Assembly (NCBI GenBank): GCA_963783575.1
Contig: CAWAOD010000010.1
Coordinates: 1 to 64,000 of the forward strand
Direction of reading: 5' to 3'
DNA length: 64,000 nucleotides
From: an uncultured Spirochaetota bacterium
Lineage (GTDB): Bacteria; Spirochaetota; Brevinematia; Brevinematales; JAOACQ01
Shown: positions 32,701 to 58,233 of the stretch, piece after piece
Layout: each line of letters opens with the position of its first letter
How positions within the stretch are numbered: the stretch's first letter is position 1
Position numbers and translations under genes: made by a program
The notes under the pieces: generated by a model
The model's database searches: none
Told to the model about the DNA's origin: nothing
Seen by the model: the letters and a program-made list of their open reading frames with translations, nothing else

Positions 32701-32853
32701 GACAGCTTCTATCAGGTCAACCGATAAAACTGAGTTGATGCCCAATTCTAAGAAACTCGCTTCTTCTATCAATGAGTTATCCTGAACATTTAATAAACCG
32801 GCAATAATCGCTTTTATCGCATTTTCAATATCCTTAACATCATGAAATATCAT
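20578..32853 (-). CDS. Trans-AT PKS subunit 1 (~4090 aa): ACP-KS-DH-KR-ACP-KS-DH*-KR-ACP-KS-DH
   Basis: Uninterrupted ORF (track start 32868; ATG at 32853 follows GGAG). ACP GINSV and two GFDSI; KS DTACSSS, ETACSSS, NTACSSG, each with HGTGT; DH HQINGRKVLPG and HLVKGQKVLPG; KR GGLGGLG (LRD) and GGCGGLG. No AT domain. Confidence 0.95.
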   Translation of the reverse strand: MIFHDVKDIENAIKAIIAGLLNVQDNSLIEEASFLELGINSVLSVDLIEAVNQKLGIDLGVDAVFDYKGAKELAEQIASQYGIIKSEEKTMSNSGSKEWSSAKKTNNNSETENVIKNEIPGVAVIGISGRFAGSNTMEEFWSHLQSGDSCIKEINRKGWKESDYYSSDPMKKNKSISKWGGMLENIDKFDALFFNISPIEAERMDPQQRLFLEEAYKALEDAGYSSEQLSGKKVGVFVGGRSSDYKEMTLSEQEINSQTFLGTDMSILAARLSYYLNLKGPSLAVDTACSSSLVALHLACECINSGESDISIAGGVFVICSPEFLIMATKTEMLSPDGKCKSFDNDANGIVVGEGVGALVLKHLESAIEDGDHIYGIIKGSSINQDGRTKGITAPSMLSQKELIYQTYTKVGINPETVSYIEAHGTGTKLGDPIEFKALSESFRMFTNKKQFCVIGSHKPNFGHTIMTAGIAGVFKILMSMKYRQIPPSIPVNLINEHIDLKDSPFFLNFELKKWETNDGIPLRAGVSSFGFSGTNCHVIIEEPPAKKILNNNELKPYYLFYFSARTKKDLKQKLIDFNGWLDKNSHSCSAKDVAYTLSTGRDHFSFRCSFIAKDLDELKQSILDVMNNTSENAFLNERVNSSKNEPILNGLKEYGEKIIEDLALTENFTSEEYKEKLLILSNLYISGYNLNWNKLFKDQKYYRVSLPAYPFDGESYWIYGNRNYSCESYHNNAGFDGDFIHPLLHKNTSDFLEQKYSSIFTGEEFFLSDHQINGRKVLPGVAYLEMARAAVENAAVSNKEKKPGIVLKNVVWARPVVVENEPVKVNIGLIPGEKGEIMYEVYSGGEEEESIVHSQGTVEFRDVNEKVIIDLKTVQKRKWVRKLSSEECYKDFKGFGIDYGPGHRGIDLLFVADNEALAKITMPEIVTVNAGKYNLHPSMLDSAFQAVMGLLSIDGGGAVVPFALDGLEIMENCIQSMWAVVKSVQGGKGSKFDIDICDDKGKVYVRVKGLAVRVMEKFESSGILILEPVWKETNLDKEKEIAEYVEHLVFLCELDGITSEDIDARIKTANCIILKPNKKGQKIGERYQNYALRMIEEIQQVIKRKPGGKVLIQAVVTVEGEKQMFAGLSGILKTAHLENQKIIGQLIELDGNKNTEVILKILEDNAVRTGENRIRYQKGKRLVEELKEVEITKDKSVIPWKRGGVYLITGGLGGLGRTFAKEISVKTKESTIILTGRSGISTEKESWIKELENNGAKVEYRKVDCRVKSEVEDLMRWIEEKYEKLNGIIHIAGVLRDSYLLKKGREEAEEVLSPKVKGLVNLDIASRNMKLDIFILFSSIAGVLGNPGQADYSAANGFMDAYAKFRNEETAKSRGFGKTITMNWPLWKNGGMQAGIEGEKILRNMMGISPMDTEHGIDTLYKSILLDKDQLIVLAGNIALIRKKLIIKQLPENLKTGKSKYETISAGTFNDQELIERVHTVLIKDVSKILKVKPGDIDIDTEIGEYGFDSITFTAFANEINHEFGIELNPTIFFEYPTIHGISQYLRTEYQEMFSIQTVDKNKVQDVIIENEEVNTRKSLRQKFISGASLSSQKPDKTLPEKIAIIGMSGIFPGARDIKEFWNNLVEEKDSIIEISEDRWDWKKYYGDPVREKNKSNIKWGGLIDGVYEFDPLFFGISPREAELMDPQQRLLMTYVWKVIEDAGYSAESLSGSRTGMFIGTTESGYGEMLSKADKVIEGYTSTGIVPSVGPNRMSYFLNLHGPSEPIETACSSSLVAIHRAVCAIENEGCTMAIAGGINTIINPDLHISFNKAGMLCEDGHCKTFSDQANGYVRGEGVGMLFLKKLKAAEEDGDHIYGVIRGTAENHGGRTNSLTAPNPNAQAELLKTAYLKAGIDPRTVTYIEAHGTGTQLGDPIEITGLKTAFKELYETTGNMETIEGHCGIGAVKSNIGHLELAAGAAGVIKVLLQLQHKTLVKSLHCESINPYIELKGSPFYIVSEKREWTALKDSNENEIPRRAGVSSFGFGGVNAHIVIEEYKVKEENKQLKAVLDNPALIVLSAKNEEKLKEMVKSLAEAIESEDFSDNRLIEIAYTLQVGREAMEDRLGFTAGTIQELKEKLTLYLKGDHEAENIYIGQVKKNKETISMLMADEDIQKAIESWIGKKKYIKILELWVKGLNFDWNRLYEGKKPDRISLPSYPFSREIYRIDVSGENNRYAASQIKYIHPLVQENTSDLTEQRFSSVFNGDEIFFSGNRVNGNKVLLEAAYLEMARAAVTFASKPMIGDKKGIRLKNYFWANPLTVGDKAIKVNISLIPEEDRGLSFEIYSEKEGGEFVVYGHGMAEINGSNEEKIIDLKALQEKKWDKTLSLEKCNEALLNVRITYDPGNCGIETVYIGDSEALVKLTIPAPFTNNTGESVAQTLMLDAAFYAVIYWQKGESRADGMHPFVMEEMELMRDCLKSMWAVLKKRVENGSNQFDIDLCDNNGRIYISLRGLQLRESMEVLPNLSIGNSIQTIIKNDKDENDSIMTFEEVWQESEIQETTNKEIKRIVCFLSKDENQQEAMDFIRMLGQNTDVIFINDGKAFQRKNKVEYSVKANDPGAFKEAFENIRKESGEVDVIIYLWPIEKRSYIKDYSCIVYILQGAAAAGLRPERYILGGRIKNGLDRCFLESWIGFERSIGIMMPSVRITGVFEDSNSQAGELSIKGWMERVWQELKAAKGRSAFYSHGKRQVCCIRQINVNSGNDIIKRKGTYLITGGCGGLGFLFAEYLAKTKSVNLILTGRSKINENIKKKIRLLEESGSQVLYRDADVCDAARMKEVYSEANNLFGGIQGIIHAAGIPGADNILSKDMKDFQKVIDPKVKGTLVLDEIIQDDSIDFICYFSSSAAVLGDFGSCDYAIGNRYQMSYAGYRNQLKKKGRRKGDAIVINWPLWREGGMRLGKPETTSMYIKSSGQRLLEKEEGIALFEKLLAQKNAHYLVLAGQKERVLSFISNIEDPSKPILNKVEHLELKKIGTGILSLSLERNLEWELIEQISQILKINRENIGKEENLAEFGFDSISLGEFAHVLNRHFNLEITPAVFFGYSTVSKLTGYLLQEYREQINTFYSSYAVEEIKNTNNSGKNTKNLLEKRRPRFAFNNPGRKDQESIAIIGMSGRFPDSWNIEDMWHILSEGINTVKEYPQNRLNEVDKFKWKCGCIPGVDEFDPLFFEISPREAEVMDPRQRLLLEESWKALEDAGYGLNQIKKNKMGMFVGVEHDEILNHQQYPSDETNMTSNHEGVLAARLAYFLDFNGPVMAINTACSSGLVAAHQACLSLNSGECDTAIAAGIHLMLRKDLFESMNQADVLSQDAKCYTFDKRANGLAAGEAVVAVVLKKLSRAERDGDPIYAVIRSSGINYDGKTNGIMAPSGVAQGELLKTVYEKGKVNPEDIEYVITHGTGTKLGDPVEVNALNKVFKTYTKKQEYCALTSNKTNFGHTFAASGLVSLINMVQAFRYKTIPASLHFEQENEFIQWVESPFYVNKSNKLWTDRNGKRRIGAISAFGMSGTNAHMVLESYSEEHSYDDELPYYLMVLSAKNLESLKTKITDMAIFLEKKDWNIKNMGRLCYTLFEGRQHFNERIAIVVRDCAEAINTLKKYIENHKLPNLFYGKISFNFNGQKAIEQYINELILQVRSMRNNTESCQEKLFALAEFYCQGYNIPWSGMYIEKEPERMNLPTYPFSKEKYQVIGEERKQIGHTAFSRCIHPLLHENTSVLKEQRYNTEFTGREFFLTDHLVKGQKVLPGAVYLEMARAAVEAAAEKTAGYVVCLKNIVWIRPFIVEEKPVKINIRLVPGENSEILFEFYSGNNPAETVIHSQGTAEIIQVKEEFLINIDDLQNRQWQEVISAEECYEEFCKTGIVYGIGHQGIKIIYISEGILLAKLEMPPTVIHSSDGFILHPSILDSAMQAAIGLKIIEGEIEAIMQFSIDRVEIISTCVPSMWAILKYNESEKIKKFDIDLCDDKGRGCVRIKGLSLRSINAEGKHTNQFFNSEDVRDITLPVRDSEMSINSLLSLVKNGSIDIQSADQLLNELSIFEEIHGNNIESL

Positions 32854-32868
32854 ATACAATTTCTCCAA

Positions 32869-33690: not shown

Positions 33691-33709
33691 TTTTATTCAT
33701 CCCCTCGTT

Positions 33710-34491: not shown

Positions 34492-34569
34492 ATATTCCCA
34501 ACCCTTTTTCATCATACACTGGAGAATTTTTAAATTTACAAAAGGATAATTAATCACTACTTCTTTAAT

Positions 34570-36117
34570 CTAAACGATTTCATTATGGAAACGGTTAAAT
34601 CGTTGATTGAGAATATCTGCGGTTTCATTTAATAGCTTTAACGCTATTTCATCCACATGCCTATTCCTCCAGTTTTCTAAATCAGTTCCTTTAACCCATT
34701 GATTAAATGCCCCTAAAGAAGGTCCGCAATGGATTTGATAATCGACTTTACTTTCCTCGCTGCCGGTAAGTGCAAGTTGAGTAGAATATCCAAAATACCA
34801 TCTAAAAATGATAGCCATTTTCATCTTTGGATTCTTTTCCGCTTTTTCAATTTCATTGGAATCTTGAGATTTAAAATAGGCTTTACAATCTTCATATATA
34901 CTGCTAAAACTTTTTTTAAAGTACTTTTCTTGTATCTGCGTTTTCGTCTTTTCATCAATCTCTTCCAGTGAATTGTATTGTCTGTAAAGATCATACAACT
35001 TGTTTGCCCTAGCCGGAAAAAACAAACCTTTTTTTAAAACCTGGACTTTAGCCCCGATTTCAAACATATCTCCAGCCGGAGCATAGTCTGTATCTTGAAC
35101 GTTCATCTGCTGAAGTAAATCTTTTGCTGCATCGCTCGTCCCTGCCTCAACGGTACATTGGTTTATTGATCCAGTGGTAATAAAGTCGGCTCCCAGAATA
35201 AAAGCTGCCGCAGCAGCCTCGGGAGTTCCAATCCCTCCAGCCGCTCCAATGTGAACTTTTTTTTGATTCGGATATTTTTTCATCATATCATCGCGCAGTT
35301 TAATCATAGCTGGCATTAATACATAAGCGATACCACCGTCTGTATGCCCTCCTGAATCAGCCTCAACACAAATATCATCCGCAATGGGAATTTCTTTTGA
35401 CAACTCGGCTTCTTCCTTTGTTATTTTATTTTCAGTTAAGAGTTTATTCAGAATCTGCTCGGACGCAGGGTTTAAAAAAAATTCTGCCACTTCCGGCCTT
35501 GACAATTTTGCAATAATCTTATTCGAAGAAGTTATCCTTCCAGATTGATCTTTTGATAACCCCTTTGCATGATATTTGACTAAAGCCGGAGTAACCATTA
35601 AATAAGCAGAAGCTTCAACATTCTTTACCCCATATTTTAGATAAAGGTCAACTGTTTTTTCTTCCATACTGGGATTATTTGGATTATGCAATAAGTTCAA
35701 TCCATAGGACTGACCGCCGGCAAGTTCTTTCTGTAAATATTGAATTGCATCTTCAATCTCGGATAGATTCATACCGCCTGTCCCAAGGAAACCCATCATA
35801 CCGGCTTTACCCATTTTTACAACCATTTGCTTTGATGCTATTCCGCGAACCATGCTCCCGGTAATATAGGGATATTTCAGACAGTATTCATTCTTAAAGT
35901 CTTGATCACCCAGAGAAGCAGCTGTTATACCCATTACTTTGGGAACTGGTATCATTTCACTTTGCATGAATTGTTTGTCCTGATTTTTTTCTACAACATC
36001 CGTAACATTCTGTTTTATTTTCACGGATTCGGAATTAACATCATTAATATCTTGGATATTTCTCATTTCTTTTTTAGCGCCTTCTATCATATCCTTCAGA
36101 ATTTCTGACCGTTTCAT
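34570..36117 (-). CDS. Trans-acting enoylreductase (PfaD/FabK-like, PksE C-terminal type) with ~60 aa unrelated N-terminal extension
   Basis: [60 protein letters not shown] at 36117 has RBS GGAGG and sits 1 nt after the parA stop. Confidence 0.92.
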
Positions 36118-36118
36118 T

Positions 36119-36871
36119 TTATTCCTCCATAATCCCTTTTGAAATTTCAGCAAAAACAGGAATTGATTTTGATTTTGGAAAAACATCATAAAGCGGTTTT
36201 CCAAGAAGCTGAGAATCTTTTATCTTACTGTCTTGCGGAATAGTATATAATTTATAATTCATTTCATTAAACAACTCGCTCACTATATCATGCGAACTCA
36301 TTGAAGAATTTTTATTATTGATGATAACCTTCTCATGTTTCACATTTCGCCTTTCATATTTATTCAGATTTTTAATATCAATTGAAAGAGCGGATAAACC
36401 GGAAATACCATATTTTTCTGGTATAAATGGGCTTATAATTTCATCCAAAGTGATCGCTATCCCCTTCTCAAGAATTCCGAAATTTGGGGATAAATCGTAA
36501 AACACATACTCAAAACCTTGTTTCTCGAGGTCCTCATTTAATTCCTCAAAGAAATACCGTTGTTTATTAATCACTATATCCGAATCTTCCCTCAGTTCAG
36601 AGCCTTTTCCCTCTGTTTTTATAAAAAATAAATACTCATTATAACGGGATAAAGACTCCGCCGGACTCGCCTTATCATTAATGATATCCAGTAGCTGGTA
36701 TTGGCTGATATCCGCGCCTTTATATAGGCCATCCGTCGCATTCCCTTGAGGGTCAGCGTCAATTAAAACCGTTTTCTTTTTAAATTTTGTCGCAATGTAA
36801 TGTGCGACGGTCACTGTAAGGCTTGTTTTACCTACCCCGCCTTTTTTACAGAAGAATGAGATTTTTTTCAT
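36119..36871 (-). CDS. parA: ParA/MinD-family ATPase
   Basis: Deviant Walker [19 protein letters not shown], Walker B VFYDLSP, 250 aa, RBS AAGGAG. Confidence 0.92.
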
Positions 36872-36912
36872 GATAATTCTCCTTCATACTGCCTATCAAA
36901 TATTAGTTTTCC

Positions 36913-37263
36913 TTATTTTTTAACATAAGTCACCAGAACCGGTAATACTTTTACGACATAGGGTAGAACAGAAATTGCGTAAACGCAAACGCTTAATGAC
37001 GTCAAGCTGAAAAGTATCCAAGAAACAGTTTTCTGGCTGATTTTTTTCGCTTCTTTCTGCTTATTGAACTGTCTTAAACTAAGAAAAACACCGATCACAA
37101 TTTCTATTGCAAAAGTGAGCATTAATAATATGGTCAATAGAAACTTTTCAGAAGTATACCCAATATATACAAACAAAAACATATAGATAGGCCAGGGAAA
37201 CAATAAAATATACAAAATAGTGCTTCCAACTACTACTGAGTTTAAAAATGATTTCATATTCAA
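36913..37263 (-). CDS. Small hypothetical membrane protein (about 3 TM helices)
   Basis: Three hydrophobic stretches with a Lys-rich loop; RBS GGAGG; co-oriented between the radical SAM gene and parA. Confidence 0.7.
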   Translation of the reverse strand: MNMKSFLNSVVVGSTILYILLFPWPIYMFLFVYIGYTSEKFLLTILLMLTFAIEIVIGVFLSLRQFNKQKEAKKISQKTVSWILFSLTSLSVCVYAISVLPYVVKVLPVLVTYVKK

Positions 37264-37277
37264 TCCTCCATTAATTT

Positions 37278-38849
37278 TTATATCAATAATTCGGACAAAA
37301 ACTGTGAGGTTATGTCTTGAAAAATCTCATCATTCCAATAATCTTCGTCCACCACTTGTTTTTTGACTATTTTAGTATTTGCAAAAACAGGAGCTTCTAA
37401 AATTTTATTCAAAATGTTTTGCATAAATTCGCAAAGGCAGGTATTTGAACGTTCCAATGATAGAAAAAAATATTCCCGGAGAGGAGAGTTGATGATTCTA
37501 AATAATACCGATGTTAGTTTTGATAAATAATTCAATTCCTCTTCATCGATTGTACTTGTTGAATAAACGGTATGAGGCGCATTGAATGAATATTTTATTT
37601 CATATTTTTCACACAATCTCTCAAGATCGGAACCAGGCAATATTTGAAGACGGTGGATATTTAAAATATGGTCTGTATTCCTCAGGTAAGGTAAAATAAT
37701 CCCCAATCCATTAAAATAAGATCCAAATGTCTCCAAAGGCAAACCCAAAATCAGGTCAATTTTTAATACGATATTATATTTATTAATATTCGACATGAAC
37801 AGTTTAAATTTATTATCATCTATCTTATATCTACTGACAGCATTTAATGCTTCTTTATGAAAAGACTGTAATCCGATACAATTAATGACATTATAATCTT
37901 TAAGTAAATCTGAGTAATGTTGTGCCAAATCCAAAGGTATGGTATTGTTGGTATTAATAATCACTTCACGGTTTTTTAATTCTGCAGTTAATTGGATAAA
38001 CTCCTCGTCACAATCATAGCATGTAATTTCCCAATAAATCCAGGGAAGTTTTATACCGCTCTTTTTAATATGTATCAAATGCTTCATTATTTCTTTTGCT
38101 CTGGTAACATCAGACATAAAATCTGAATCAAATATTCTTAATGCAGAAATCTGTTTCTGAATAATGAGATGATCTATTTCTCTTTTGACTCTATCCAGAG
38201 AATTATAAGCGATTTTTTGGACGCCTTTATGATACAGGCAATACTTGCATTTAAAACGGCATCCCCTTTGAGTTTCCAAAAATGCCTGCTGCCTTGAATA
38301 TAATCTGTCTTCAATAATATTATCCAGGTATATTGATGGAATATCATCCAAATTGGTTATCTGGCCGCCATTTCCATTATAAATTAATTTTTCATCTTTC
38401 CAATACGCAAGGCCTTTTATCTCTTTTAATATTTCTTCATTTTGATGATTCATCAAATACTGCATTAGCCTTAATAATGTCCTTTCGCCCTCACCGATAA
38501 CATAGAAATCGCCCCTCTGTTTTTTTTCAAATTTTTCTACCCTTGTCGGATAGATTTCCGGGCCCCCTAGAAGATGTAATGCGTTTGTCATACCCTTTAA
38601 TTCTTCAATAAGCTTTAAAATGGTTTCAATATTCCAGATATAGGAACTATACCCAATAAAATCTGGATCAAGATATGCGATTTTTTCCATCATTTTTTTT
38701 AGAGGATATGTTTCATTAAAATTAAGAACATCCACATTTAATTCTTCGTTACCGATGTTTTTTTCTAAATATCCTTTTAAAATATAGGAAGAAATAAGAT
38801 ATTGTGCTATCGTGTTTACAGGGTAGATATTTACCAGAACCAATTCCAT
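37278..38849 (-). CDS. Cobalamin-binding radical SAM enzyme (class B methyltransferase-like)
   Basis: N-terminal B12-binding-like motifs (IGYSSYIWN, LGGPE, VIGEGE), ETQRGCRFKCKYC (CxxxCxxC), DLILGLPLET. Confidence 0.9.
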   Translation of the reverse strand: MELVLVNIYPVNTIAQYLISSYILKGYLEKNIGNEELNVDVLNFNETYPLKKMMEKIAYLDPDFIGYSSYIWNIETILKLIEELKGMTNALHLLGGPEIYPTRVEKFEKKQRGDFYVIGEGERTLLRLMQYLMNHQNEEILKEIKGLAYWKDEKLIYNGNGGQITNLDDIPSIYLDNIIEDRLYSRQQAFLETQRGCRFKCKYCLYHKGVQKIAYNSLDRVKREIDHLIIQKQISALRIFDSDFMSDVTRAKEIMKHLIHIKKSGIKLPWIYWEITCYDCDEEFIQLTAELKNREVIINTNNTIPLDLAQHYSDLLKDYNVINCIGLQSFHKEALNAVSRYKIDDNKFKLFMSNINKYNIVLKIDLILGLPLETFGSYFNGLGIILPYLRNTDHILNIHRLQILPGSDLERLCEKYEIKYSFNAPHTVYSTSTIDEEELNYLSKLTSVLFRIINSPLREYFFLSLERSNTCLCEFMQNILNKILEAPVFANTKIVKKQVVDEDYWNDEIFQDITSQFLSELLI

Positions 38850-38887
38850 ATTTATTTCTCCATTTTCATACAGATAATTATTAAATC

Positions 38888-41800
38888 TTATTTTCTTAAA
38901 CCCATGATACGTTGCCTCTGAAGTTCCCCTCTTTCTTTCATTTTCTTTAATTTATTATCAACCTCGCCTTTTGTTAAGAATTCCGCGAGTTTCCTGATGG
39001 TGGTATATTGAAATAAATCTGTTATTTGCAGCGCCTGATCAAACTCATTTTGTATTTTGCTTAAAAATTGAACCAATTGAATAGAATGCCCACCAAGATC
39101 GAAAAAGTTGTCGTCAATCCCGATTGAATCTTTATTTAAAACTTCCTTGATCAATCCTACAATTTTTTCCTGAACATCATTTGCCGGTTCAGCACTGGAT
39201 GAGGGAATTTCTGCGATCACAGGTCCTTTAATATTAATTTTATCAATACTATTGTAATTATTTAATATATCCAGTAATATTTCCTGATCATGTCTTTTGG
39301 TGCTACTTATTGTTTTCTTATCTTTAAGCTCTAAATTTTCTTCTTTGTTTAAAGAGGTTGGATTAAATTTTAAATCAATCATTTTTCCAGAAGAGTAATA
39401 AAATATTTCACTATCATTCACCTTGTCATTTTTTAAATACTCAATACTATTCAAGAAATTATATACAGGAATATTTTTTGATGTGGAGTGATAGGGTATC
39501 ATAATATCTTCAATATTACTCTTTTTTGCCAGTTCCGCGATTCCGCTCATAATTCTATGCTCAACCCCTTTCCCCAAAGTCCTGCAGCTTAGGATAAAGG
39601 ATTCAACTTTTAAATATTTGCCAATTAGAATATAGAAAACCGCCCCAACCAACCCGTATGAACCAAACCGGTCGCTCACTTTTACAGTTAAACATTTATT
39701 CTGCTTATTTGATATAAATTCGCTAATCTCTTGTTCCGTACGGCGCAAAGTGGTTGTATTAAATTGATTGGTCCTCAAAGTCAGCTGGCTAACCCTTAAC
39801 AGATCTTCATTTTTGATTTCCTCAATATCGATTTTCAGTTGTAGCGAATTTACAAACTCTTCAAACGAGATGTGTTTTTCGATTTCCTTATTGCGTAAGA
39901 TATCCTGTTTATACATAACAGTCCTAGCCCTGTCCTCTTCAGTGATCTTCAGATGGTCCCAGAACCAGCCATGTTTAATTAAATTATGAATGCTTTCCGG
40001 TTCCTGCGGAAATTGTAATGTAAGCACTTCCGGAATAGCGCCGGATACTTCCGCGCATTCCAGAGGATTATCATCAATAAAAATAAAACTGTCCAGGCCA
40101 AGATTCAGTTCTTTTGAAATCTTTATTATATTTTCAGACTTAGATTCCCAGTTAGCTTTGATTAACGTGATATGGTCAGCAGTTAAAATCATTCCGGATT
40201 TTTCCTGTAATGCTTTTAATATATCCGATTCTTCATTTTTGCTAACCAAACAAAGGACCATACCATTTCCCTTCTGTTCAGCCATCCATTTTTGAAATTC
40301 TGCCCTTTCGGGATCGATCTCAATTTTATCGATTCCGTCTTCACCGATAACACCTTTCCAGAGAGTATTATCACAATCTAATACAATCACTTTAAACGGT
40401 TTTCTTTTTATTGCATAGATTTTCCTGGAAATAGCTGTCCCCAGGGTTTTATAAAAGTCCACAGTATAGGGTAAATGCCCTTCTTTATCAGTCAACTCAT
40501 CGAAAATATGGGTGATTGGAAATGGGGTAAGTACTTCCTCATCTTTTAATAAATATATATTACTTAGTGGCATGATTCCTTTAATTATTTTTTCTTTTAG
40601 AATTTCAACATCTTCCTCTGCTATTAAGTTTGCTTCATTTCTCGAAGGTAAAATACTTAATATAACCGGGACTGTAAAGCTATTTGCAGCTTTCTGCAGG
40701 GACTTAATAAAATCATCACATATACTAAATATCTTTTCCTTAATATCTGAATTATTCCTATCATCCGTGCTATATCTGATCCAATCTTCCAACCTAATCA
40801 ATAAAACATTAATTCCATCCTTATTCATCATCATAAGTTGAGAGGGGTCTAAAAGCTGGTTAAACACTTGATTATAATCAGCGAGTTCAATGGAGGAAGG
40901 CATTTTCAGCTTATTCATCCAGAATGATAAGATTTCTTTAACCGGTTGATCGGAAAATGTTGAAGAAATAATGATCCTCTGTTTATAATTCTTTATGCTA
41001 TAATCATCAACTTTCTTTTGTAAGTCATCCGGAATCACTAATTCTTTTATTTTTATATCCGGTTTTTTTACAATTTGCTCGATTATGGATACATACCCCG
41101 ATATTATGGCTTGTGCGGTGCTGTCCAGAAATAATTCTTTTGAATAATCAAATGCGCCGACAATCCTTTGATTATTCACCCCCATTGATAAAAAGATATC
41201 ATAATCGGAATACCCGGAAAACAAATATAAATCTTCAACAGAAATATCATCTACAACAGGATATTCGCGGATTTGTATCAAATTAAACATAACTTGAAAC
41301 AATGGATTCATATTAAATTCATTCTTATTTGTTAGATTTTGAACTAAATTAAAGAACGGTATATCAGAATGATTAAACGCATTATTGCTGATATCTAAAT
41401 TAACTTTCATGAGATTCACAATATTTTGATCTGGGAAAAATTGATTCTTTAGAACCAGGGCATTGGCAAAATTACCAATTATTTTCTGAAAATCCGGTAA
41501 TTTACGATTTGCCATAGCACAGCCGATTAAAAATTCATTCTGCCTGCTAATAATGTAAAGCAAACTGGCAAATGCCGAATAGAGAAAATTAAATATGGTA
41601 ACTTTTAATTCCATGGTCAGTTTTATTATAGCTTGAACCGTTTCTTTATTTAAATCAAATACAATTTCTTCGGCCTGATAGGTTAAAGTTTTCGGCCTAT
41701 CAAAATCATAAGGCAAACTAATAGTAGTTGGGACATTTTTAAGTGTTTCTATCCAATATTCAACCAGCTGTTTTTCAGTTTTTCCCATTAATGCATTATG

Positions 41801-42649
41801 ATAATTAATATATTCCAGAAAATTGCTTTTTAATGGAACCAGTTCCATTCCCTGTTTTCCGCAAAGCTTAAAATATGTTTTAATTAAATCAGACAAAATT
41901 ATTTCAATCGACCAGAAATCAGAGATAATATGGTGGATATTAACAAATAAAATTTGATCATTTTCATTGATCCTAAAGATTTTAATTTTGATCAAATCAC
42001 CTTCAAAAAGGTTCATTCCTTTTTTGGCTTCAGTTTTTACTTTTATTTCAATTTCGCTTTCTTTAATTTCCTCAATAGGGACAATAACAGGTTCGGCATC
42101 TTTTATCATTTGAAACATTTTGTTGTTTTCAATAACAAAGTAAGCTCTTAACAATTCATGTCTGTTTAAAAGAAAATTGTAGCTTACATTTAGTAAATCT
42201 ATTTTAAATTTCCCTTTTATCCTCATAGCGGAATAGATATTAAATATAGGGGTCCCTGGATACAACCGGTCCAAGAAAAAAATCCTTTCCTGGTCGGATG
42301 ATATGGGCCATTTTTTATTATCTTGCATCATCGGTTTTGTATTTTGAATTATTGATCCGTAACTGGCATTATTTCCTTTACTTAAAATTTTATGGGTCGC
42401 ATATTCAATAAACTCAGCTATACTGCTGGTATCAACCAGTTTACCCGCATTGATCTCTATCGTAAATTTCTGATTAATTTCCCCAATTATCAAGGCTGCC
42501 GCGATGGAATTCCCTCCTAATTCTAAAAAATTTGCCTTTGGGTCTATTTTCATACCAGTCTTTTGTTCCATTATTAAAACAATATCATTAAAAATTTTTT
42601 CTTTATCCCCTAAAATTGCAGCGGAATAATTTTGATTAAAATCTTCCAT
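38888..42649 (-). CDS. NRPS-like protein: carrier - condensation - FkbH-like glyceryl transferase - carrier (T-C-FkbH-T)
   Basis: LGGNSI carrier; C domain with RHELLRA and HHIISD; FkbH/HAD-IIIC motifs VLDCDNTLWKG, FIFIDDNPLE, RTNQFN, DRFGSYG, LSCRTLGKGVE; C-terminal LGGHSI carrier. Confidence 0.92.
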   Translation of the reverse strand: MEDFNQNYSAAILGDKEKIFNDIVLIMEQKTGMKIDPKANFLELGGNSIAAALIIGEINQKFTIEINAGKLVDTSSIAEFIEYATHKILSKGNNASYGSIIQNTKPMMQDNKKWPISSDQERIFFLDRLYPGTPIFNIYSAMRIKGKFKIDLLNVSYNFLLNRHELLRAYFVIENNKMFQMIKDAEPVIVPIEEIKESEIEIKVKTEAKKGMNLFEGDLIKIKIFRINENDQILFVNIHHIISDFWSIEIILSDLIKTYFKLCGKQGMELVPLKSNFLEYINYHNALMGKTEKQLVEYWIETLKNVPTTISLPYDFDRPKTLTYQAEEIVFDLNKETVQAIIKLTMELKVTIFNFLYSAFASLLYIISRQNEFLIGCAMANRKLPDFQKIIGNFANALVLKNQFFPDQNIVNLMKVNLDISNNAFNHSDIPFFNLVQNLTNKNEFNMNPLFQVMFNLIQIREYPVVDDISVEDLYLFSGYSDYDIFLSMGVNNQRIVGAFDYSKELFLDSTAQAIISGYVSIIEQIVKKPDIKIKELVIPDDLQKKVDDYSIKNYKQRIIISSTFSDQPVKEILSFWMNKLKMPSSIELADYNQVFNQLLDPSQLMMMNKDGINVLLIRLEDWIRYSTDDRNNSDIKEKIFSICDDFIKSLQKAANSFTVPVILSILPSRNEANLIAEEDVEILKEKIIKGIMPLSNIYLLKDEEVLTPFPITHIFDELTDKEGHLPYTVDFYKTLGTAISRKIYAIKRKPFKVIVLDCDNTLWKGVIGEDGIDKIEIDPERAEFQKWMAEQKGNGMVLCLVSKNEESDILKALQEKSGMILTADHITLIKANWESKSENIIKISKELNLGLDSFIFIDDNPLECAEVSGAIPEVLTLQFPQEPESIHNLIKHGWFWDHLKITEEDRARTVMYKQDILRNKEIEKHISFEEFVNSLQLKIDIEEIKNEDLLRVSQLTLRTNQFNTTTLRRTEQEISEFISNKQNKCLTVKVSDRFGSYGLVGAVFYILIGKYLKVESFILSCRTLGKGVEHRIMSGIAELAKKSNIEDIMIPYHSTSKNIPVYNFLNSIEYLKNDKVNDSEIFYYSSGKMIDLKFNPTSLNKEENLELKDKKTISSTKRHDQEILLDILNNYNSIDKINIKGPVIAEIPSSSAEPANDVQEKIVGLIKEVLNKDSIGIDDNFFDLGGHSIQLVQFLSKIQNEFDQALQITDLFQYTTIRKLAEFLTKGEVDNKLKKMKERGELQRQRIMGLRK

Positions 42650-42720
42650 AAAACATCTCCAATTTATTAAACTGTGGTATTTTTTTCAAATCTTTTTTTA
42701 TTTCATTCAAAATAATGAAT

Positions 42721-45700
42721 TTAGACTATATCCCTGATTTTATCACACATTTCCTTTTTTAATTCTTCAAAAATTTCCAGAATTTTATTGTTGCTGTTTT
42801 CACACATGGAATAGATTGAAAAATTAATATTCTTATCTGTAGTTCTAATATCCACATAAAATAAAAGCTTTTGCGCATCTATAGCCGATTCTTTTCTTCT
42901 TTCATCATCTAAGATGGATTCTTCTATAGAATAAATACGATAATTCCCTAAATAGTTGAATGCCATTAAAGCAGGTTGTTTCGTATGCTGTTGTTGAATT
43001 TTATCAGCATTTAACCTGGCATACGCATTATTGATGAAAACTAATCCTTCTTTAAATAAATAATTTATTTTCGCAAAAGCGTCTTCTGCCATTTTCATAG
43101 GGTCTTCTCTATTAATTGGAATGAGAAACGGTATGAAATCAAGGAAAAGCCCTATTGTCTTAAAATAGTATTTATTTTGATAATATCTTCCAAAATTAAC
43201 TATTTCAACAGGGATTTTATCTATCTGGAAATATTGAGATAAAAACAGCATATAAAAAATCAATGAATGCTTCCATAAAACATCTTCTTCCATGCTGTTT
43301 TTATATTTTAAATTATATTCCACTTTGAAAGCCTTATCCTGATTGGGAAGGACAATATTATTTTTAATAAATTGCTTAATTTTAACCTGGTATTGATAAA
43401 TTTCATAAAGATTAAATAATTTATTTAATTCATTAAAATCTGATAATCTATTGTCATTCTGTATACTGAAAACATATTCGTCATAAGTGTTTATTTTCTC
43501 GTTAATTATTTCTTTATGATTCAGGTAAGCATTATAATATTTAACAATATATCCCCTCAGTACATTTTCGCTAAGTACATCAAATATCAAATGAGATATA
43601 GATAAAAATAAACAATAATCCTTTAGATTCTTTTTAATTAAAATAAACTGGTATAAAAGCTCATTACTTTCATACATTCTCTTAAATACATCTTCAATGA
43701 TATTGTAAATAAAAAATGACTGCCTGTTGCTGTCATACATGGAAATATCGATTACCGGAATTTTAATGGAAGCAGGAGGAGAAAATACAGCCCATTGATT
43801 CCCTTCCTTATTTAGCATACTTCGAAAAACAAGCTGTTCTGAAATAATGATTAGTAAGGTCTGTTCAAGAATTTTAACATCAACAAAATAATCGAAAGAA
43901 AATACACTGCACATAGTTAAAGAGTCAAAAAGCTGCTTTTGACAAGGAGTAACAGGGTATTCAAGGACAATATCGTTTTTTTTAAAATATCCATTAAACT
44001 CTTTTTTATGTAACTCTATTTCTTGCCTTATCACATTATAGGTTGCTATACTATCTACATTTTTACATCCAATGATATCTTTTAAAATCGTATAACTTAT
44101 CTCCTGATTATCAGTTAATGCTTCAGGATAATAAGATAACGGCAGTATATAATTTGGAAAATTATTATTTGATATCTTATCTTTGAGTGTTTCAATGATT
44201 GAATCTATTAAAGGCTCATCCGCAAATAATAAATGGATTTTTTTGTTATTATTTTCAAGCTTCAATCTTAATTCTTTTGAAGTGAAATGACAGTTTTCAT
44301 GGATTAAACTGATTAAATCATTTGAATATGGATTATTTTTTTCGATTATTTTATTACTTTCAATAAAATTGCTCAACTCAACAGTAGACGGATGGTTAAA
44401 TATATCGCTAAATGATATTTTAAATCCGTGTTTCTGTAACTTATTTACAATTTTAATATTATGCAATGAGTTCAACCCCAATTCAATTACGGATTGGTCT
44501 ATACTAATCGGTTTAAAATTTAAGGATTCTTCAAAAACCTGATTAATAATTTTATGCAATTCGGTTTCAGGCAGCTTAATTTTTTCATTATAAATATATA
44601 AAGTTAATGGATCCGGAAGCATTTTTCTATCAATTTTTCCATTCCGGTTTAATGGAAGTTTTTCTAAATGGATAAAATAAGAAGGAACCATATAAACCGG
44701 CAGCTTTAAAGATAGAAAATCCCTCAATTCTTTGTTCGGAATATCCATATCCGACACATAGTATGCCGTTAGGAATTTATTCCCTTCACTATCTTCCCTC
44801 GTGAGTACAACCGCTTCCCAAATATCCTCATGCTTTAACATCTGGCTCTCTATATCTCCCAGTTCAATTCTGAAGCCTCTGATTTTCACCTGTTGGTCAA
44901 TTCTTCCTAAATACTCGATATTCCCATCCGGCATCCACCTTGCAAGATCTCCTGTCCGGTACATTTTTTCCCCTTTTTCATACGGGTTATCTACAAATTT
45001 CTCTGCCGTTATTACCGGACTATTCAAATACCCTCGTGCCAACCCATCTCCAGCTATGCATAATTCTCCGCTGACGCTTTTAGGCAAAAGATTCCCCGAT
45101 TGATCTAAGATATAAAGCCGGATATTATCTATCGGTTTCCCTATTGGCACTATTTCCGTTTCGTTATCTTTTTCACAATTGTAATATGTAACGTCGATTG
45201 CTGCTTCTGTAGGGCCGTATAAATTAATTAATCTTACGGCTTTTCTTTTTAGTAGCTTATTAAACAGATTTACATGTTTTGGAGTCAGCGGTTCTCCGCT
45301 CGAAAATACCTGTTTTAAACTGCCGAGCTGATCTATTGCTTTCTTTTCTTCCATTTGCTCTAAGAAAGCCCCCAGCATCGACGGGACAAAATGTATAGTA
45401 GTGACGCTATTCTTCTCTATCGCTTCCACAATCATTATCGGGTCCTTTTCTCCTCCCGGCTGTAGGCATCCAAACCCCTGCCCCGGTGAGCGACCACCAT
45501 ATCAATTCCCAGACCGACACATCAAAAGTATACGGTGTTTTTTGAAGAATAATATCAGTATCCCTGATAGGATATTTTTTTTGCATCCAATTGAGCCTGT
45601 TTATCAATGAATAATGTTCAATCATAACACCCTTGGGATTCCCAGTAGAACCGGACGTATAGATTACATACGCCAAATTCCTAGGCCCAGCTTTTTCTAG

Positions 45701-47749
45701 GGATTTATTGCTGACGTAATTTTCAAAGCTGTCGGAACCATACTGGAATTTATGTCTTTTAGTTGTTTCTTTCTCTTTAATTGATTGGTCCATTTCCATA
45801 ATACAATCATATCTATAAGTTGTTAATTCATTTACTATGGTATGGATTTTTTTAGAAAAAGTCACCTCTTTTACTACCTTCAAATCTAAAGCCAAATCCT
45901 CAAAAAAACCTTTTGAATAGAATAATTCATTGTTAAATTCTGTCTTTGTTCTTAATCCAGGGTTATTCTTCTTAAAATCGATGATTGAATTAATAAGCTC
46001 TGCTTTTCGATCGAGGTCCATTATATCGCCAACATATATAATACCTTTATCTCGTAAAAGAGAAACAATTTTCGATACAACATCTCTCAGGTAGTTATAT
46101 CCTGGAAATAATTGTATCACACTATTAATAATGACTATATCAAAATCTTTTTCACGGATTTTATCGATATCATGCGCTGCGAGGTATTCTAATTCTATAT
46201 TATTTATACCATTTTCTTTTATTTTAATTCTATTATTTTCAATCATTACCTTTGATAAATCGGTCCCATAATACATCTCAACATCTTGCGCAACCCTATA
46301 CATCGTTATACCTGATGCGCATCCTATTTCAAGTACTCTTGTCTTATTATTCAGGTAAGGCTTCAGCTTCTCGTATGTATTTTGTGCGTATTCTTCCATC
46401 TCTAGTTTTGAGAATTCTTCTCCCGTATAACTGCTTTTCCATCCCCCTTCACCGATTTCATTGGATGCTTCCTTCCCTATAGAATCCCAAAGCTTTTCAT
46501 CCATCAAACCGAATTCCTCTGCTTCTTCAGGCTGGTATATATCCGTACTATCTATACAAATAAATGAATTAAAAGCACTGCACTCCCATTGCAATTTATT
46601 AATTTTATTAATATCTTTTTTATCAATCACAACAACTTCAATTCCCGCATTATCTATAATAGATTTTATCCGCTCAATGGGAAACTCCGGGTCTATCGGC
46701 ACGTAAGCCCCTCCCGCTTTGAGTATACTGAGTATTCCTACAATCATATTTTCCGATCTTCTCATAAATAAACCGACAAGCGATTCCGGTTTTATCCCAT
46801 TTTTATCACTTAAAAAACCAGCTAATTTATTAACTTTTTCATTTAATTCCTGATATGTCAGTTTCCTGTCTTCAAAAACAACCGCAATATTTTCTGGCGT
46901 TCTCTGGACTTGTTCTTCAAATAATTCAACTACGGTCTTGTCCCTTGGGTAATCTTCTTTCGTATTATTGAATGTACTAAGCAGCTCTTCTTTTTCACTA
47001 TTTGTTAAAATATCAATCTCTGATAATTTCATAATTGGATTCATTATAGCCATCTCAATAAATCTCAATATATGTTCAACTATCTGGCTAACAAACTGGC
47101 TTTCATATTTATTCTTATTGTATTTAAGGTTTAGAACTTGTATGTTTTCCTGAATTGAAAAGAAAAAGCACATATCACATTTCAAATCGTCAAAATTTAC
47201 CTTGGTATGCATTTGCTCGAGCAATATAATAGTTTTGAAAAAAGATAACGGATCTGAAGAATCCTCAAGATTTAACAATACAGGAAGATTTTTATATGAA
47301 AAATGAGAATATATTCCAGATTCAGTGACATTATTTTCAATTTCTGTAAGGTAGTCTTGAATAGAAATATTCTCATGAATTAAACTTCTTAATAAAATGA
47401 GATTGTCATTAGTTTTAATGTCGGATTTACTATTTAAAACAGGCATACCTATATTGATATCTTGATTACCAGTATACCGAAATAACAAATAGTTCACTGC
47501 CGCCAATAAAACGATAAAGATATCCTGTAAAGAATTTTTATTTAAATCGAATAACGGTTCATCTTCTTTTCTATTAAGATGAAAGAACCGGGATATGTAT
47601 TCATAATCATAAATTGTATTTTTGTTTCGACTGGCTGGGAAAGTACTGATAACAATCTCCCCTTGAAGCTTTTCATGCCAATATTTTTTATCATCTTCAA
47701 ACTGAGAGTTTGATGCCGGAGTATTTTTTAAATTTTGATACATATACAT
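42721..47749 (-). CDS. NRPS: partial C - A(Ser-type, interrupted by a methyltransferase) - PCP - C-like; frameshift at ~45465
   Basis: ORFs 45407..47764 and 42721..45435 join (GAGVWM-L-QPGGEKDP) on removing one C. A cores LKAGGAYVPIDP, YTSGSTGNPKG, FDVSVW, NLYGPTE, GELCIAGDGLARGY, YRTGDL, NGKIDR; MT VLEIGCASG; PCP LGLNSL; terminal SHLIFD. ATG at 47749 follows AAGGAG. Confidence 0.9.
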
Positions 47750-47825
47750 CCGAGTCTCCTTCACAAAATTATTTATAAACTACCCCATCTTCTTATGTTA
47801 TTAAAAAACGGATTATACTATATCT

Positions 47826-50800
47826 CTAGTTTTTATTTAAACTAATATATTCTGATATATCTGCGCTGTTTTGATGGTTCATTAAGAAATCAAGCCCTAT
47901 ATCTATTTGAGCAGTTTCTCTAATTTTTGTTACAAGCTGTATTGCCAGTAAAGAATGGCCTCCTAAATCAAAAAAACTATCCTTTCTTCCGATTGGTTGA
48001 ATATTTAAAAGCTTTTCCATCATAGCTATGATCTTTTTTTCATTTTCAGATATTGGAGCCTCATATGGTGTTGCCAATTCCGGACGCGGTTTTAATTTAT
48101 CGCTTTCATGCGAATTACTATCGACCTGCCCGGGATCCATTTTTATCCATATATCATAACGTTTGTAGAGGTCTGAACAGGAAATAATCATAGGATTAAA
48201 CTGCGCTTCAACACCTGACAATTTTTCCAAACATATATTTCCCTCATAGGTAGTTATCAAGCCTTCCAATATTCTTTCCGAACCTAATTGAAAACCGGCA
48301 GCCATGTTTTCTTCTACCAGGTCTTCAAACCATTCTGATTCAAGGGAATCCCAATTGAATACGGCCCAGGGCTTTTGTAAATAATTGTTTGCATCGAGGG
48401 CAGCACTTACCGCGATAGAATCTGCCGAACAGTAGGCGAAGAAACCCGGACCAGCCAGGACTGTACTTATAGATGTCCATAAATATCTGAAATCCAGCTC
48501 CTTATTCTTAAAAATCTCATTTATGATAACAAATGATCCTCCGATGGAAGAGAGATTATAATGGCATAATTTTTTTATCATATCAGCAGGATAAGAAAGA
48601 GTAGCTATTCTGCCAGCCGCGTATCCTCCGGCGGCATGTACAACTCCGTTAATAGGGCCAAACTGTTTTTCAAGATATTCTATCTTCTTTTCAAGTTTAT
48701 CTTTATCGTTGATAATATCCAGCTCATCTATAAATTCCGCACCTAAAGCTTTTAGTTTTTTTACTGTTTTAATCTTCAAGCTTTTAATTTCATTCGGACC
48801 ATGATTTTTCAGCCAATCTTCCCAATCTTTTTCTTTCGGAAGAGTAGGATCATCCATTATAATCAGCTGAGCTTGATATTTCCCAATAATATATTCATAT
48901 ATTGCGGGTATCCCGCCGGTTAAACCCCCAAAAGCAAAATAAACGCCTTTTTGCTTAAATACACTATTTTGTTTTATATTTTCATTCAATTTAATCTGGT
49001 TAAAATTCAGAACCCAGCGTTTATTACTACGATAGGAACAAACAATATCTTTATTGTCCGATAGAATTTCATTTACAACAAGATTAACCCTGTCTTTATA
49101 GGCTAGAAATTCTTTATTTATTTCTATTAACCGATTCCGGAAATTCGGATATTCCTGCTGAATTACTTTCAACGCGCTTACAATGGTTGATTTTTCAGGA
49201 TATACTTTTTCATTTCCATAAATATCAAAAACATTATTTACAAAAGAAAATAATTGAATGTTTCTTGTGATATTATGCGTATTAACTGCTTTAATTAAAT
49301 ATAAAAATGAATATAGTCCAAATTTCTGAAAGGATAAAATAGAATCTATTTGTTGAACAAAATTCTCATTTTTTAAATCAAATAAACTAAAAAAATGTAA
49401 GATTGAATCCGGTATATTATGATTCAATTCCAAGTCATTAAATAATAATAGATAGGATTCCGGGTTTTCCAAATCAATTTCGTAAGTATTGCTACTGGTT
49501 TTCAAGTATTCCTTACCGGCATATACATAAAAGGCCTTTTCTCCCCTATTTTTTAATTCCTCTCCAATAGAATACCCAAAGTTTAGATGGTCTACAAATA
49601 TCAGTCTCTTCAATACGGTTTTATTATCAGATTGGATAATAAAAGGAAGGGCGGTTTGATTCCATTTATTATAATAAAACCATTCATCCATATTATTAAT
49701 TTTATGAGCAATTGAATTGTCCTCTTGAATTTTGTCTTTATTTTTTGATTCAATCCAATAATAATCTTTTTCCAACGGATAAGTCGGAAGGCTTACCCGT
49801 TTCCTTTTTTCATCTTTATTAATATTTTTCCAATCGGCAATTCCTTCTTTAAACCAATCTCTCAGCTTATTGTTTGGTTCATTGCCATTGTTTACAATTT
49901 TTTCTTGGTAGTTATGGTTGTCAATCATTTTTTCCGGGTTCTTGCCTTTTAATATATCAATGGCATTTTCAATAGAATTTGTATAAAATGCAAGCTTGTT
50001 TTTAAAATCACGCCTTCCAACCTGCAGGGTATATGCAATATCCTGTACAGAAGAATTTCTGTGTTCTTCCATATATTTCAGTAAATTGTTTTTAACTTCA
50101 TTCAATTGTTTATCATTTTTTGCAGACAAAATAATAACCGATTCTTTTTCCGTTTTTTCTCCAACACTATCATCACAATATTCTTCCAAAATGATATGGG
50201 CATTGGTTCCTCCGACCCCAAGAGAACTCACTCCCATTCTTAACGGAGAAGATTTTGACTGCATATCACAAAGTTCCGTATTCACATAAAACGGCGAATT
50301 CTCGAAATTTATATTTTTATTTCCCTTTTTAAAATGAAGGCTGGCCGGAACCTGTTTTTTTTCTAAGGCTAAAACAGTTTTTATAAAACTAGCTATCCCT
50401 GCTGCCGCTCCCAGGTGCCCAAAGTTAGTTTTTACCGAACCTAATCCGCAAAATCTATCCTTCGTTGTAAATTCCCTGAAAGCCTTTGTTAAAGCTGCGA
50501 CTTCGATCGGATCGCCAATTTTTGTACCGGTGCCATGGGCTTCAATATAATCTATTGTTTCAGGAGACACTCCGGAAGAAGCATAAGCCTGTACAATCAC
50601 TTCAGATTGGCCTTCAATACTCGGCGCTGTATAACCTGCTTTGTTTGAACCATCATTATTTAATGCGGACCCTTTAATCACAGCCCTGATATGGTCCCCA
50701 TCCGCAACAGCATCGCTCAATCTCTTTAAAAGGACTACACCGCTCCCACTGCCCCATATAGTCCCATCCGAATCATCATCAAAAGCCCTGCAATAACCAT

Positions 50801-54436: not shown

Positions 54437-54676
54437 TTATTTCCTGTTGATTAAACTGATAATATTATTCACAGTATTAAAATTATTAATGTCCAGGTCA
54501 TCATTTTCAATTGCAATATTAAATTCTTTCTCAAGAAAATTTACTAATTTCATAGCAAATAATGAATTTACAAATCCAAGGGCAAAGAAATTATCACCAT
54601 CTGAAAATTCTATATTATCATCTGCTATAATAAAATTATTCTTAATAAATTCCCTAATTTTTTCTCTTTGTTCCAT
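54437..54676 (-). CDS. Stand-alone acyl carrier protein (FkbJ/ZmaD-like)
   Basis: 79 aa, FALGFVNSLFAMKLV motif typical of extender-unit ACPs; RBS GGAG. Confidence 0.9.
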   Translation of the reverse strand: MEQREKIREFIKNNFIIADDNIEFSDGDNFFALGFVNSLFAMKLVNFLEKEFNIAIENDDLDINNFNTVNNIISLINRK

Positions 54677-58152: not shown

Positions 58153-58233
58153 TTTTAGGAATTATAATTGATACTTCCCTCTTATTTGTTTTTTATTGTA
58201 AATTATTATATGTATCTTTATAATTATTTTAAA

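Follow-up and report, generated by a model that had tools for sequence, protein, structure and literature searches.

The window analyzed here, the first 64 kb of contig C10 from the genome of an uncultured Spirochaetota bacterium (4.9 Mb in 18 contigs), carries a hybrid cluster of polyketide synthase (PKS) and nonribosomal peptide synthetase (NRPS) genes, and every cluster gene lies on the minus strand. The gene under study occupies 38888..42649, a single open reading frame (ORF) with an ATG start whose 1253-residue product (P0001) has two carrier (T) domains, a condensation (C) domain, and an FkbH domain in the order T1-C-FkbH-T2. The N-terminal carrier, T1 (residues 15-95; 42365..42607), was recognized from a second PP-binding stretch and from the motif around Ser48 (GGNS). 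It is followed by the C domain (residues 113-546; 41012..42313; Pfam PF00668, E 1.8e-74) with the motif HHIISD and His240, by the FkbH part's N-terminal extension (NEX; residues 551-745; 40415..40999), and by the FkbH core (residues 753-1069; 39443..40393; TIGR01686), which unites a HAD phosphatase part bearing DCDNT with an acyltransferase-like part bearing Cys1022. The second carrier, T2 (residues 1161-1225; 38975..39169; Pfam PP-binding), has Ser1189 in GGHS, and a basic tail (residues 1229-1253; 38891..38965), singled out by its conservation and by a predicted interface described below, closes the protein as a predicted docking element.

The domain calls leave little doubt about this architecture. 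The FkbH family TIGR01686 matches residues 753-1069 with 283 bits against a cut-off of 146.65, HAD-IIIC matches residues 753-870 (both NCBIfam), and Pfam adds a pair of PP-binding stretches (E 2.5e-29), all of them scores that chance could not plausibly produce. The translation holds LELGGNS (Ser48), NIHHIISDF (His239, His240, and Asp244), VLDCDNTLW (Asp758, Asp760, and Thr762), LSCRTLGKG (Cys1022), and FFDLGGHS (Ser1189), and its C terminus reads KMKERGELQRQRIMGLRK. Residues 551-745 match the extension that stands ahead of the phosphatase part in other FkbH proteins, alignable in all C-FkbH-T homologues and described for FkbH proteins in PMC12304814. The initial annotation, made from the DNA letters alone, had listed a carrier, a C domain with HHIISD, an FkbH domain with DCDNT, a second carrier, and a basic tail, all of which the ORF, Pfam, and NCBIfam confirmed.

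The active sites are in place as well. FkbH sits between the C domain and a carrier, where an adenylation (A) domain would otherwise stand, as the initial annotation had proposed, and wherever a residue is conserved in at least 95% of 236 FkbH homologues, P0001 has it too, bar three conservative changes. Among the residues conserved to that degree, D758, D760, and T762 of the HAD DxDxT motif, K837, the pair D859 and D860, and the S-C-R triplet S1021, C1022, and R1023 with its thioester cysteine are all present. The HHxxxD motif of the C domain is kept in 93 of 94 family members, and the glycine after its aspartate is replaced in 49 of the 94, P0001 included; the solved chains nearest to this domain, 5u89 and 2jgp, both represent ordinary C domains of the elongation type. 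Both flanking carriers have the phosphopantetheine-accepting serine: Ser1189 is invariant in P0001 and its four orthologues (5/5 aligned sequences), and Ser48 is kept in P0001 and in the three orthologues that possess T1 (3/3). In the tail, K1238, R1240, G1241, E1242, Q1244, and R1245 are invariant in the five sequences, and comparable basic tails occur in the more distant homologues P0006, P0007, and P0329 and in a C-FkbH-T protein of G291, another genome of the spirochaete phylum. P0001 is a real, intact member of a known, common module type.

How common the type is became clear from homologue searches with P0001, which gave 776 near-length matches and 800 matches in longer proteins. Architectures were counted in 120 listed near-length proteins of the 776, the query included. 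The C-FkbH-T order is present in 97 of these 120, with a full C domain in 94 and a partial one in 3; the region ahead of FkbH starts at the C domain in 51, with an AMP-binding domain in 30, with a carrier or other small domain in 8, and with a ketosynthase (KS) in 5, and FkbH is N-terminal in 23. A pattern search of species-representative genomes gave 612 matches, of which 586 encode relatives; these belong to cyanobacteria, Acidobacteriota, Chloroflexota, and further groups. The module type is known and widespread, and ordinary in itself; the initial annotation had overrated its rarity, given the hundreds of C-FkbH-T relatives found.

Close relatives are fewer. Four orthologues of P0001 (50-58% identity) share its architecture and basic tail, one of them (P0003) without T1 as called, and the nearest non-orthologous relatives of the whole protein are P0329 (39%) and P0006 and P0007 (36% each). 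No orthologue appeared in 40 relatives or in 400 sampled genomes of the phylum; one genome has a C-FkbH-T protein at 30% identity. A scan of genome contigs with the single protein gave no relative; an alignment-based scan did find relatives. Among the loci fetched, a KS lies near C-FkbH-T in only two genomes, G291 and G196. Three metagenome contigs (L093-L095) carry a 50%-identical T-C-FkbH-T form, and their combined order is KR-T (open at the 5' end; KR, ketoreductase), thioesterase (TE), T-C-FkbH-T, a 107-residue ORF, a ParA-like ATPase, a PfaD-like reductase, and IS66. Relative to the window, the KR-T part is 55% identical, the 107-residue ORF 31%, the ParA-like protein 76%, and the PfaD-like protein 68% (seen in L093 and L095); the NRPS and radical S-adenosylmethionine (SAM) genes of the window are absent from these three contigs. 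The closest named relatives of two proteins of this genome come from a Spirochaetales metagenome-assembled genome.

We then considered what the C domain of P0001 would use as its donor. A C-domain phylogeny, suggested by the initial annotation, was built from the 94 full C domains of the 120 listed proteins, with supports from the Shimodaira-Hasegawa-like approximate likelihood ratio test (SH-aLRT). The query group (5 rows) is sister to the C domains of P0006 and P0007, two proteins of the order KS-AT-T-C-FkbH-T (AT, acyltransferase), with SH-aLRT 100; the C domains of these two follow PKS carriers. This group falls inside a 31-row clade (SH-aLRT 99) rich in C domains fed by fatty-acyl-AMP ligases: 15 members are AMP-ligase-fed (mostly of the fatty-acyl type), 9 start at the C domain, 4 have only a carrier first, and 3 are PKS-fed. 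C domains fed by ordinary A-T pairs are mostly in the other half of the tree. Because the P0001 C domain groups with those fed by fatty-acyl or polyketide carriers, the chain on T1 would be acyl or polyketide rather than peptidyl. Together with the intact HHxxxD motif and the precedent of vioprolide, this placement supports, by comparison, the earlier proposal that the C domain would form an ester from the chain on T1. The candidate protein from the vioprolide producer Archangium violaceum Cb vi76 (L075) proved to be an A-T-C-A protein rather than an FkbH module, and the vioprolide C domain is therefore not placed in the tree. Pairwise carrier scores did not reveal which of the two P0001 carriers matches the single carrier of fused homologues. 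A further conceivable product, a glycerate-glycerate ester, would arise if FkbH charged T1 in addition to T2.

On the acceptor side, the predicted receiver of the chain on T2 is P0123, encoded at 47826..51491, a KS-KR-T module without an AT of its own that was characterized by Pfam, by a KS tree, and by four orthologues in which its triad (C178, H314, and H354) is invariant. The tree comprised 47 rows and excluded one long-branch KS of the window and KS matches with fewer than 330 aligned residues. In it, the P0123 KS belongs to a 10-row clade (SH-aLRT 99) in which 8 of the 9 other members follow an NRPS-type carrier: all 6 KS domains directly behind C-FkbH-T (from five fused proteins and G291) and two KS domains behind NRPS carriers, with P0006 as the remaining member. 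This grouping and the Cys-His-His triad mark it as a hybrid KS of the kind that accepts chains from NRPS carriers. In the tree alignment, the KS of P0366 (order C-FkbH-T-KS-T-C-A-T) comes closest to it, at 55% identity; BLAST gives 46-50% identity with the KS domains of the five fused proteins and 45% with that of G291. A separate clade holds 15 of the 19 KS domains that precede C-FkbH-T, and the other KS domains of the window lie among trans-AT KS domains. The P0123 KS is also the only one in the window that stands at a protein N terminus, with no carrier before it in cis.

Gene content and module order point the same way. A search with the KR-T part returned exactly four P0123 orthologues (52-57% identity; next match 26-30%). 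Since their longest contigs (36188, 35346, 28806, and 19851 nt) have the same four values as those of the T-C-FkbH-T orthologues, the two genes appear to share a contig in 4/4 relatives, and in L094 the two loci are adjacent. The module order C-FkbH-T, KS-x-T, C-A-T, and release recurs in the five fused proteins and in genome G291, and it corresponds here to P0001, then KS-KR-T, then the NRPS encoded at 45407-47764/42721-45435.

To this we added the docking prediction that the initial annotation had called for, pairing residues 1-610 of P0123 with T2 and its tail. The prediction scored 0.69, compared with 0.00 for the best of three controls; in calibration, 116 of 157 solved complexes but only 2 of 215 mismatched pairs reached this mark. 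Runs agreed in at least 84% of contacts, and the partner had a predicted local distance difference test (pLDDT) value of at least 75. Tail residues 1233-1253 were placed against KS residues 6-7 and 278-302, with orthologue-invariant residues on both sides. The hand-off to this KS, proposed in the initial annotation, is thus supported by the KS tree, the apparent sharing of a contig in all four relatives, and a complex prediction that passed its controls, although the gene order runs against it, a point that had gone unnoticed: on the minus strand, the KS gene lies upstream of the P0001 gene. The downstream large PKS had first been favored as the acceptor for T2 and was dropped on the strength of the KS tree, the recurring module order, the N-terminal position of the KS, and the complex prediction.

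The third component of the proposed line is an NRPS in two parts. The first, 45407..47764, contains the C-terminal half of a C domain (its Pfam Condensation match covers profile positions 187-456 only), the start of an A domain (AMP-binding, profile positions 1-141), and, after motif A2, a methyltransferase (Pfam Methyltransf); the second, 42721..45435, contains the rest of the A domain, a T domain, and a terminal C-like domain, C* (42724..44025; motif SHLIFD). Between the parts, at ~45440-45480 and near a GGGGTTTG run, the reading frame of the A domain shifts by one base, and the protein continues in the other frame (…GGEKDPIMIVEAIEKN…); either the assembly is wrong here or the break is real. 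Compared with a full analogue, P0130, the first C domain lacks about its first 170-197 residues. The truncated domain (46960-47764) is preceded by a good ribosome-binding site, and because an unrelated protein, P0133, begins at the same point of its C domain, the truncation may be a real, recurring architecture. The SAM methyltransferase is inserted between motifs A2 and A3 (window 45900-46400), where such inserts serve to O-methylate serine or threonine; the stretches FDVSVWE and TTIHFVPS seem to resemble serine-activating domains. C* is a divergent domain with 396 relatives, in which it stands nearly always at the C-terminal end and has the motif [D/S/N]HxxxD, and it can be read from these relatives as a putative bacterial chain-ending condensation-like domain. 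In 147 of them that were aligned, 89 have at most 120 residues after the end of the alignment and only 4 have more than 300; DH, SH, or NH-xxxD is present in 112. Against solved structures its best E value was 0.3, and NCBIfam gave no match.

From these observations we propose, with about even confidence and from sequence comparison and prediction, that P0001 loads glycerate on T2, probably links it as an ester to an acyl chain on T1, and probably passes the product to the KS-KR-T protein. FkbH would take phosphoglycerate, and its HAD part (Asp758/Asp760) would strip the phosphate; Cys1022 would then hold the glyceryl group as a thioester before its transfer to the phosphopantetheine on Ser1189 of T2. 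These loading steps are taken from the FkbH literature, and what P0001 itself displays are the corresponding sequence features. T1 (Ser48) would carry a fatty-acyl or polyketide-type thioester, which, to judge from vioprolide-type modules and from the C tree, the glycerate hydroxyl would attack in the C domain (His240) to give O-acyl-glyceryl-S-T2. The basic tail is predicted to dock on the KS of P0123, which would extend the chain with malonate from a free-standing AT, with the KR presumably reducing the keto group. The chain would then reach the NRPS module with a methyltransferase in its A domain, and C* would release or transfer it; in the metagenomic relative, a TE gene follows the KS-KR-T gene where the NRPS module stands here. 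More speculatively, the adjacent radical SAM enzyme might add a C-methyl group to the glycerate unit, the role suggested for ComJ of corramycin. The order of action from P0001 to KS-KR-T to NRPS would not be the gene order.

Several observations weigh against this proposal. Both here and in L094, the genes run opposite to the order of action proposed. A KS precedes T-C-FkbH-T in P0329, P0006, and P0007; of the 120 longer homologues listed, 19 bear a KS, and in 13 of them it comes before C-FkbH-T. The clade of the P0123 KS includes KS domains fed by ordinary NRPS carriers and so indicates the type of donor, not its identity, and the free-standing carrier at 54437-54676 is an alternative donor. 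The complex prediction used alignments of our own making, its controls were unrelated proteins rather than other KS domains, and, since carrier-KS complexes have already been solved, part of its success may come from resemblance to such structures. Nothing that would load T1 was found, in keeping with the earlier remark that the donor of the first carrier is not evident; the only strong, clear fatty-acyl-AMP ligase (FAAL) of the genome lies in another cluster (C11:562-564 kb). Finally, the module after KS-KR-T has neither a catalytic C half nor an unbroken frame, so that the line may not run to completion in this genome.

The alternatives that involve the large trans-AT PKS depend on how that PKS begins and ends. 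Its first protein (20578-32868) opens with a carrier (32605..32835; recognized by motif, sequence, and Pfam) directly before the first KS, like a loading module, with no docking region there. The PKS genes run off the contig start inside a dehydratase (DH) domain; a 73%-identical paralogue of that domain stands at the start of contig C11 and probably caused the assembly to break. Because both contig ends able to continue the PKS (the start of C11 and the end of C4; L105 and L106) finish in KS-carrier-thioester reductase, the large line looks self-contained and reductively released, its polyketide probably leaving as an aldehyde or alcohol. The same endings led us to reject, as the main explanation, a split module in which the large PKS hands its chain to T1.

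The alternative that survives best, and that we still consider unlikely, follows the genes in their order: KS-KR-T, fed by the 54437-54676 carrier or another starter, would build a 3-hydroxyacyl donor for the C domain, and the O-acyl-glycerate on T2 would pass to the large trans-AT PKS. The gene order here and in L094 is what it predicts, as is the position of the carrier, dehydrogenase, AT, and methyltransferase genes, which open the operon before the KS; the KS-KR-T carrier and T1 would then stand in series, however, and no domain is present that could shift the chain from one to the other. Homologues of the order KS-(AT)-T-C-FkbH-T (P0006, P0007, and P0329; KS-first proteins number 5 of 120 among the near-length listed, besides the 13 of 19 in the longer set) and the sister relation of the C domain to those of P0006 and P0007 argue in its favor, yet in the KS tree P0123 joins the domains located behind C-FkbH-T, not the clade of 15 rows located ahead of it. 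On the receiving side, the large PKS already supplies its first KS with an N-terminal carrier and shows no docking region there, the large line looks self-contained with both continuations ending in carrier-reductase, and the P0001 tail is predicted to dock on the KS of P0123.

The remaining explanations draw on the neighboring genes. In the order of transcription, the cluster starts with a 79-residue carrier (54437..54676; PP-binding, E 1.8e-7), an acyl-CoA dehydrogenase-like gene (53236..54381; Pfam) downstream of it, a free-standing FabD-like AT that would act in trans (52260..53234; Pfam, and TIGR00128 at 248 bits, just below the cut-off of 260.9), and a methyltransferase, followed by KS-KR-T, the frameshift-split NRPS, and T-C-FkbH-T. 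Next come a B12-binding radical SAM enzyme (37278..38849; Pfam), 38 nt downstream of the T-C-FkbH-T gene and with a partial match to the KedN5 C-methyltransferase family, and a 116-residue hydrophobic, likely membrane protein (36913..37263), which is 31% identical to the 107-residue ORF of L093-L095 and is kept beside the module; it matched no family in Pfam or NCBIfam and only unnamed clusters in the Atlas. A ParA/MinD-like P-loop ATPase (36119..36871; Pfam AAA_31 and CbiA), a PfaD-family trans-acting enoyl reductase (34570..36204; TIGR02814, 701 bits), a split hydrolase gene, and a second methyltransferase then lead to the large trans-AT PKS genes at the end of the cluster. The ATPase and the small hydrophobic protein travel with the T-C-FkbH-T gene, and they may tether the complex to the membrane. 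The second methyltransferase (32869-33690), which precedes the large PKS, is 42% identical to one beside the C-FkbH-T gene of G291 (L096/L102), and because of this likeness it may act on the glycerate unit.

A broader scheme, which we regard as distinctly improbable, would make two converging lines of the cluster. In it, a short, horizontally mobile glycerate line (T1-C-FkbH-T2, KS-KR-T, and A(MT)-T, with MT for methyltransferase) would start from O-acylated glycerate. C* would link its chain, through an ester or amide bond, to an alcohol or amine terminus of the reductively released large trans-AT polyketide, and the ParA-like ATPase and the membrane protein would keep the complex membrane-bound.

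Very unlikely, in our estimate, is that FkbH mainly or additionally charges the 79-residue carrier in trans, with the dehydrogenase-like enzyme and a methyltransferase making a modified starter or extender similar to hydroxymalonyl- or methoxymalonyl-acyl carrier protein (ACP). The carrier and dehydrogenase that open the operon have 50% and 60% identical homologues directly behind a free-standing FkbH in a second PKS cluster of the genome (G000 C4:303647-306077), which suggests that they could be a glyceryl-carrier modifying pair, and the window holds no other FkbH. A methoxymalonyl/hydroxymalonyl-ACP set consists of a free-standing FkbH, a discrete carrier, two dehydrogenases (a 3-hydroxyacyl-CoA dehydrogenase of the FkbK type and one of the FkbI type), and an O-methyltransferase of the FkbG type. 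Of these, the window offers the carrier and a dehydrogenase-like gene; no FkbK-type 3-hydroxyacyl-CoA dehydrogenase was found among its scanned ORFs, and its methyltransferases match no family dedicated to such a function. Pathways are known in which a free-standing FkbH loads a separate carrier, but here the FkbH domain is part of one chain between C and T2, an arrangement shared by hundreds of C-FkbH-T modules. Such charging can coexist with the proposed ester-forming role of P0001.

We also looked at the borders and composition of the cluster. An insertion sequence (IS) element with a DDE transposase borders it at 56438-58163 and has at least 12 further copies in the genome at 99.7-100% identity; a phosphopantetheinyl transferase remnant suspected at 55261-55784 was dropped, as Pfam returned no family. 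G+C content is 45-50% in window 1-10000 and 28-34% around the T-C-FkbH-T, NRPS, and KS-KR-T genes (36000-50000), against ~37% for the genome, and the cluster may be a mosaic of parts of different origin. Besides the break in the NRPS, an alpha/beta hydrolase (33691-34557) continues in another frame, a KS frame is broken near an AAAA run at ~8600-8650, and the PKS ORFs are fragmented in 1-4448 (within 1-8714). A cluster so decayed that the module no longer contributes to a product would account for these breaks, the truncated C domain at the start of 45407-47764, and the multicopy IS element, but it is highly improbable: neither the T-C-FkbH-T gene nor the KS-KR-T gene is broken and both retain every conserved residue, 2 of the 3 frame breaks examined (A domain and KS near 8600) lie at short homopolymer runs, as in assembly errors, and the start of P0133 at the same point means that the truncation may be real architecture.

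C-FkbH-T modules bring a non-amino-acid, sugar-derived unit and an ester bond into products, and few of them have been linked to compounds. Here the module would form a small, conserved pair, T-C-FkbH-T with a docking tail and its predicted partner KS-KR-T, which would be a defined docking pair for engineering. The apparent order of action against gene order is a caution for automated pathway prediction, and the locus adds a large hybrid cluster to the spirochaete phylum. Our literature searches found no paper mentioning FkbH in spirochaetes, none on trans-AT clusters in spirochaetes, and nothing for FkbH combined with glyceric acid and ketosynthase.

Among known systems, free-standing FkbH loaders (FkbH/OzmB and the loading module of suomilide SuoB) share the TIGR01686 family and the predicted glyceryl transfer to a carrier; they differ in supplying a starter or extender, and no C domain uses the glyceryl-carrier as its acceptor there. 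In the tetronate pathway, a FabH-like enzyme joins a beta-ketoacyl chain to glyceryl-ACP; no free-standing FabH-like ORF was found among those scanned in the window. Single proteins of the order KS-T-C-FkbH-T-TE also exist (P0088 and P0095), on which we found no paper; if a beta-ketoacyl chain were esterified to their glyceryl-carrier ahead of the TE, acyl-glycerates or rings of tetronate type could be reached through a condensation domain.

The fused lines of the order TubC-dock-C-FkbH-T-KS-AT-T-C-A-T(-TE) (P0356, P0363, P0364, P0366, P0381, and G291) resemble the present system in having the module order proposed here and the closest KS relatives, and the G291 protein also has a basic tail after its T domain. 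They differ in starting with an N-terminal docking domain rather than T1, in having a cis AT rather than a KR, and in release by a TE rather than a terminal C-like domain; we found no paper on them. In foxicin, for which ACP-C-FkbH is in print, FoxBII/FoxBIII (ACP-KS-AT-DH-KR-ACP-KS-AT-DH-KR-ACP-C-FkbH / PCP-TE; PCP, peptidyl carrier protein) likewise has a polyketide carrier feeding C-FkbH in a PKS/NRPS hybrid. There, a cis-AT PKS is fused upstream, the carrier after FkbH is on a separate protein with a TE, and no KS follows.

C-FkbH-T itself is in print for cystomanamide, vioprolide, and corramycin. Module 4 of cystomanamide (C-FkbH-PCP) is an internal C-FkbH-carrier that puts glycerate into a growing chain, and its donor is a peptidyl chain from C-A-PCP-E, whereas the P0001 C domain groups with those fed by acyl or polyketide carriers. 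Close parallels are vioprolide module 2 and corramycin ComK, both FAAL-ACP-C-FkbH-T with an ester-forming C domain. In both, FkbH stands in the A position between C and a carrier, another carrier directly precedes C, and C joins an acyl thioester to glycerate as an ester, as is predicted here; the earlier statement that the vioprolide C-FkbH-T module O-acylates glycerate agrees with the published accounts. In corramycin, the published proposal is that the radical SAM methyltransferase ComJ C-methylates the glycerate, and here the B12 radical SAM gene directly follows the module. P0001 differs from both in that it stands alone, with no FAAL in the window to place it among vioprolide-type lipoinitiation modules, and in that its chain is predicted to pass to a KS rather than to an NRPS module, in a spirochaete host with a trans-AT PKS.

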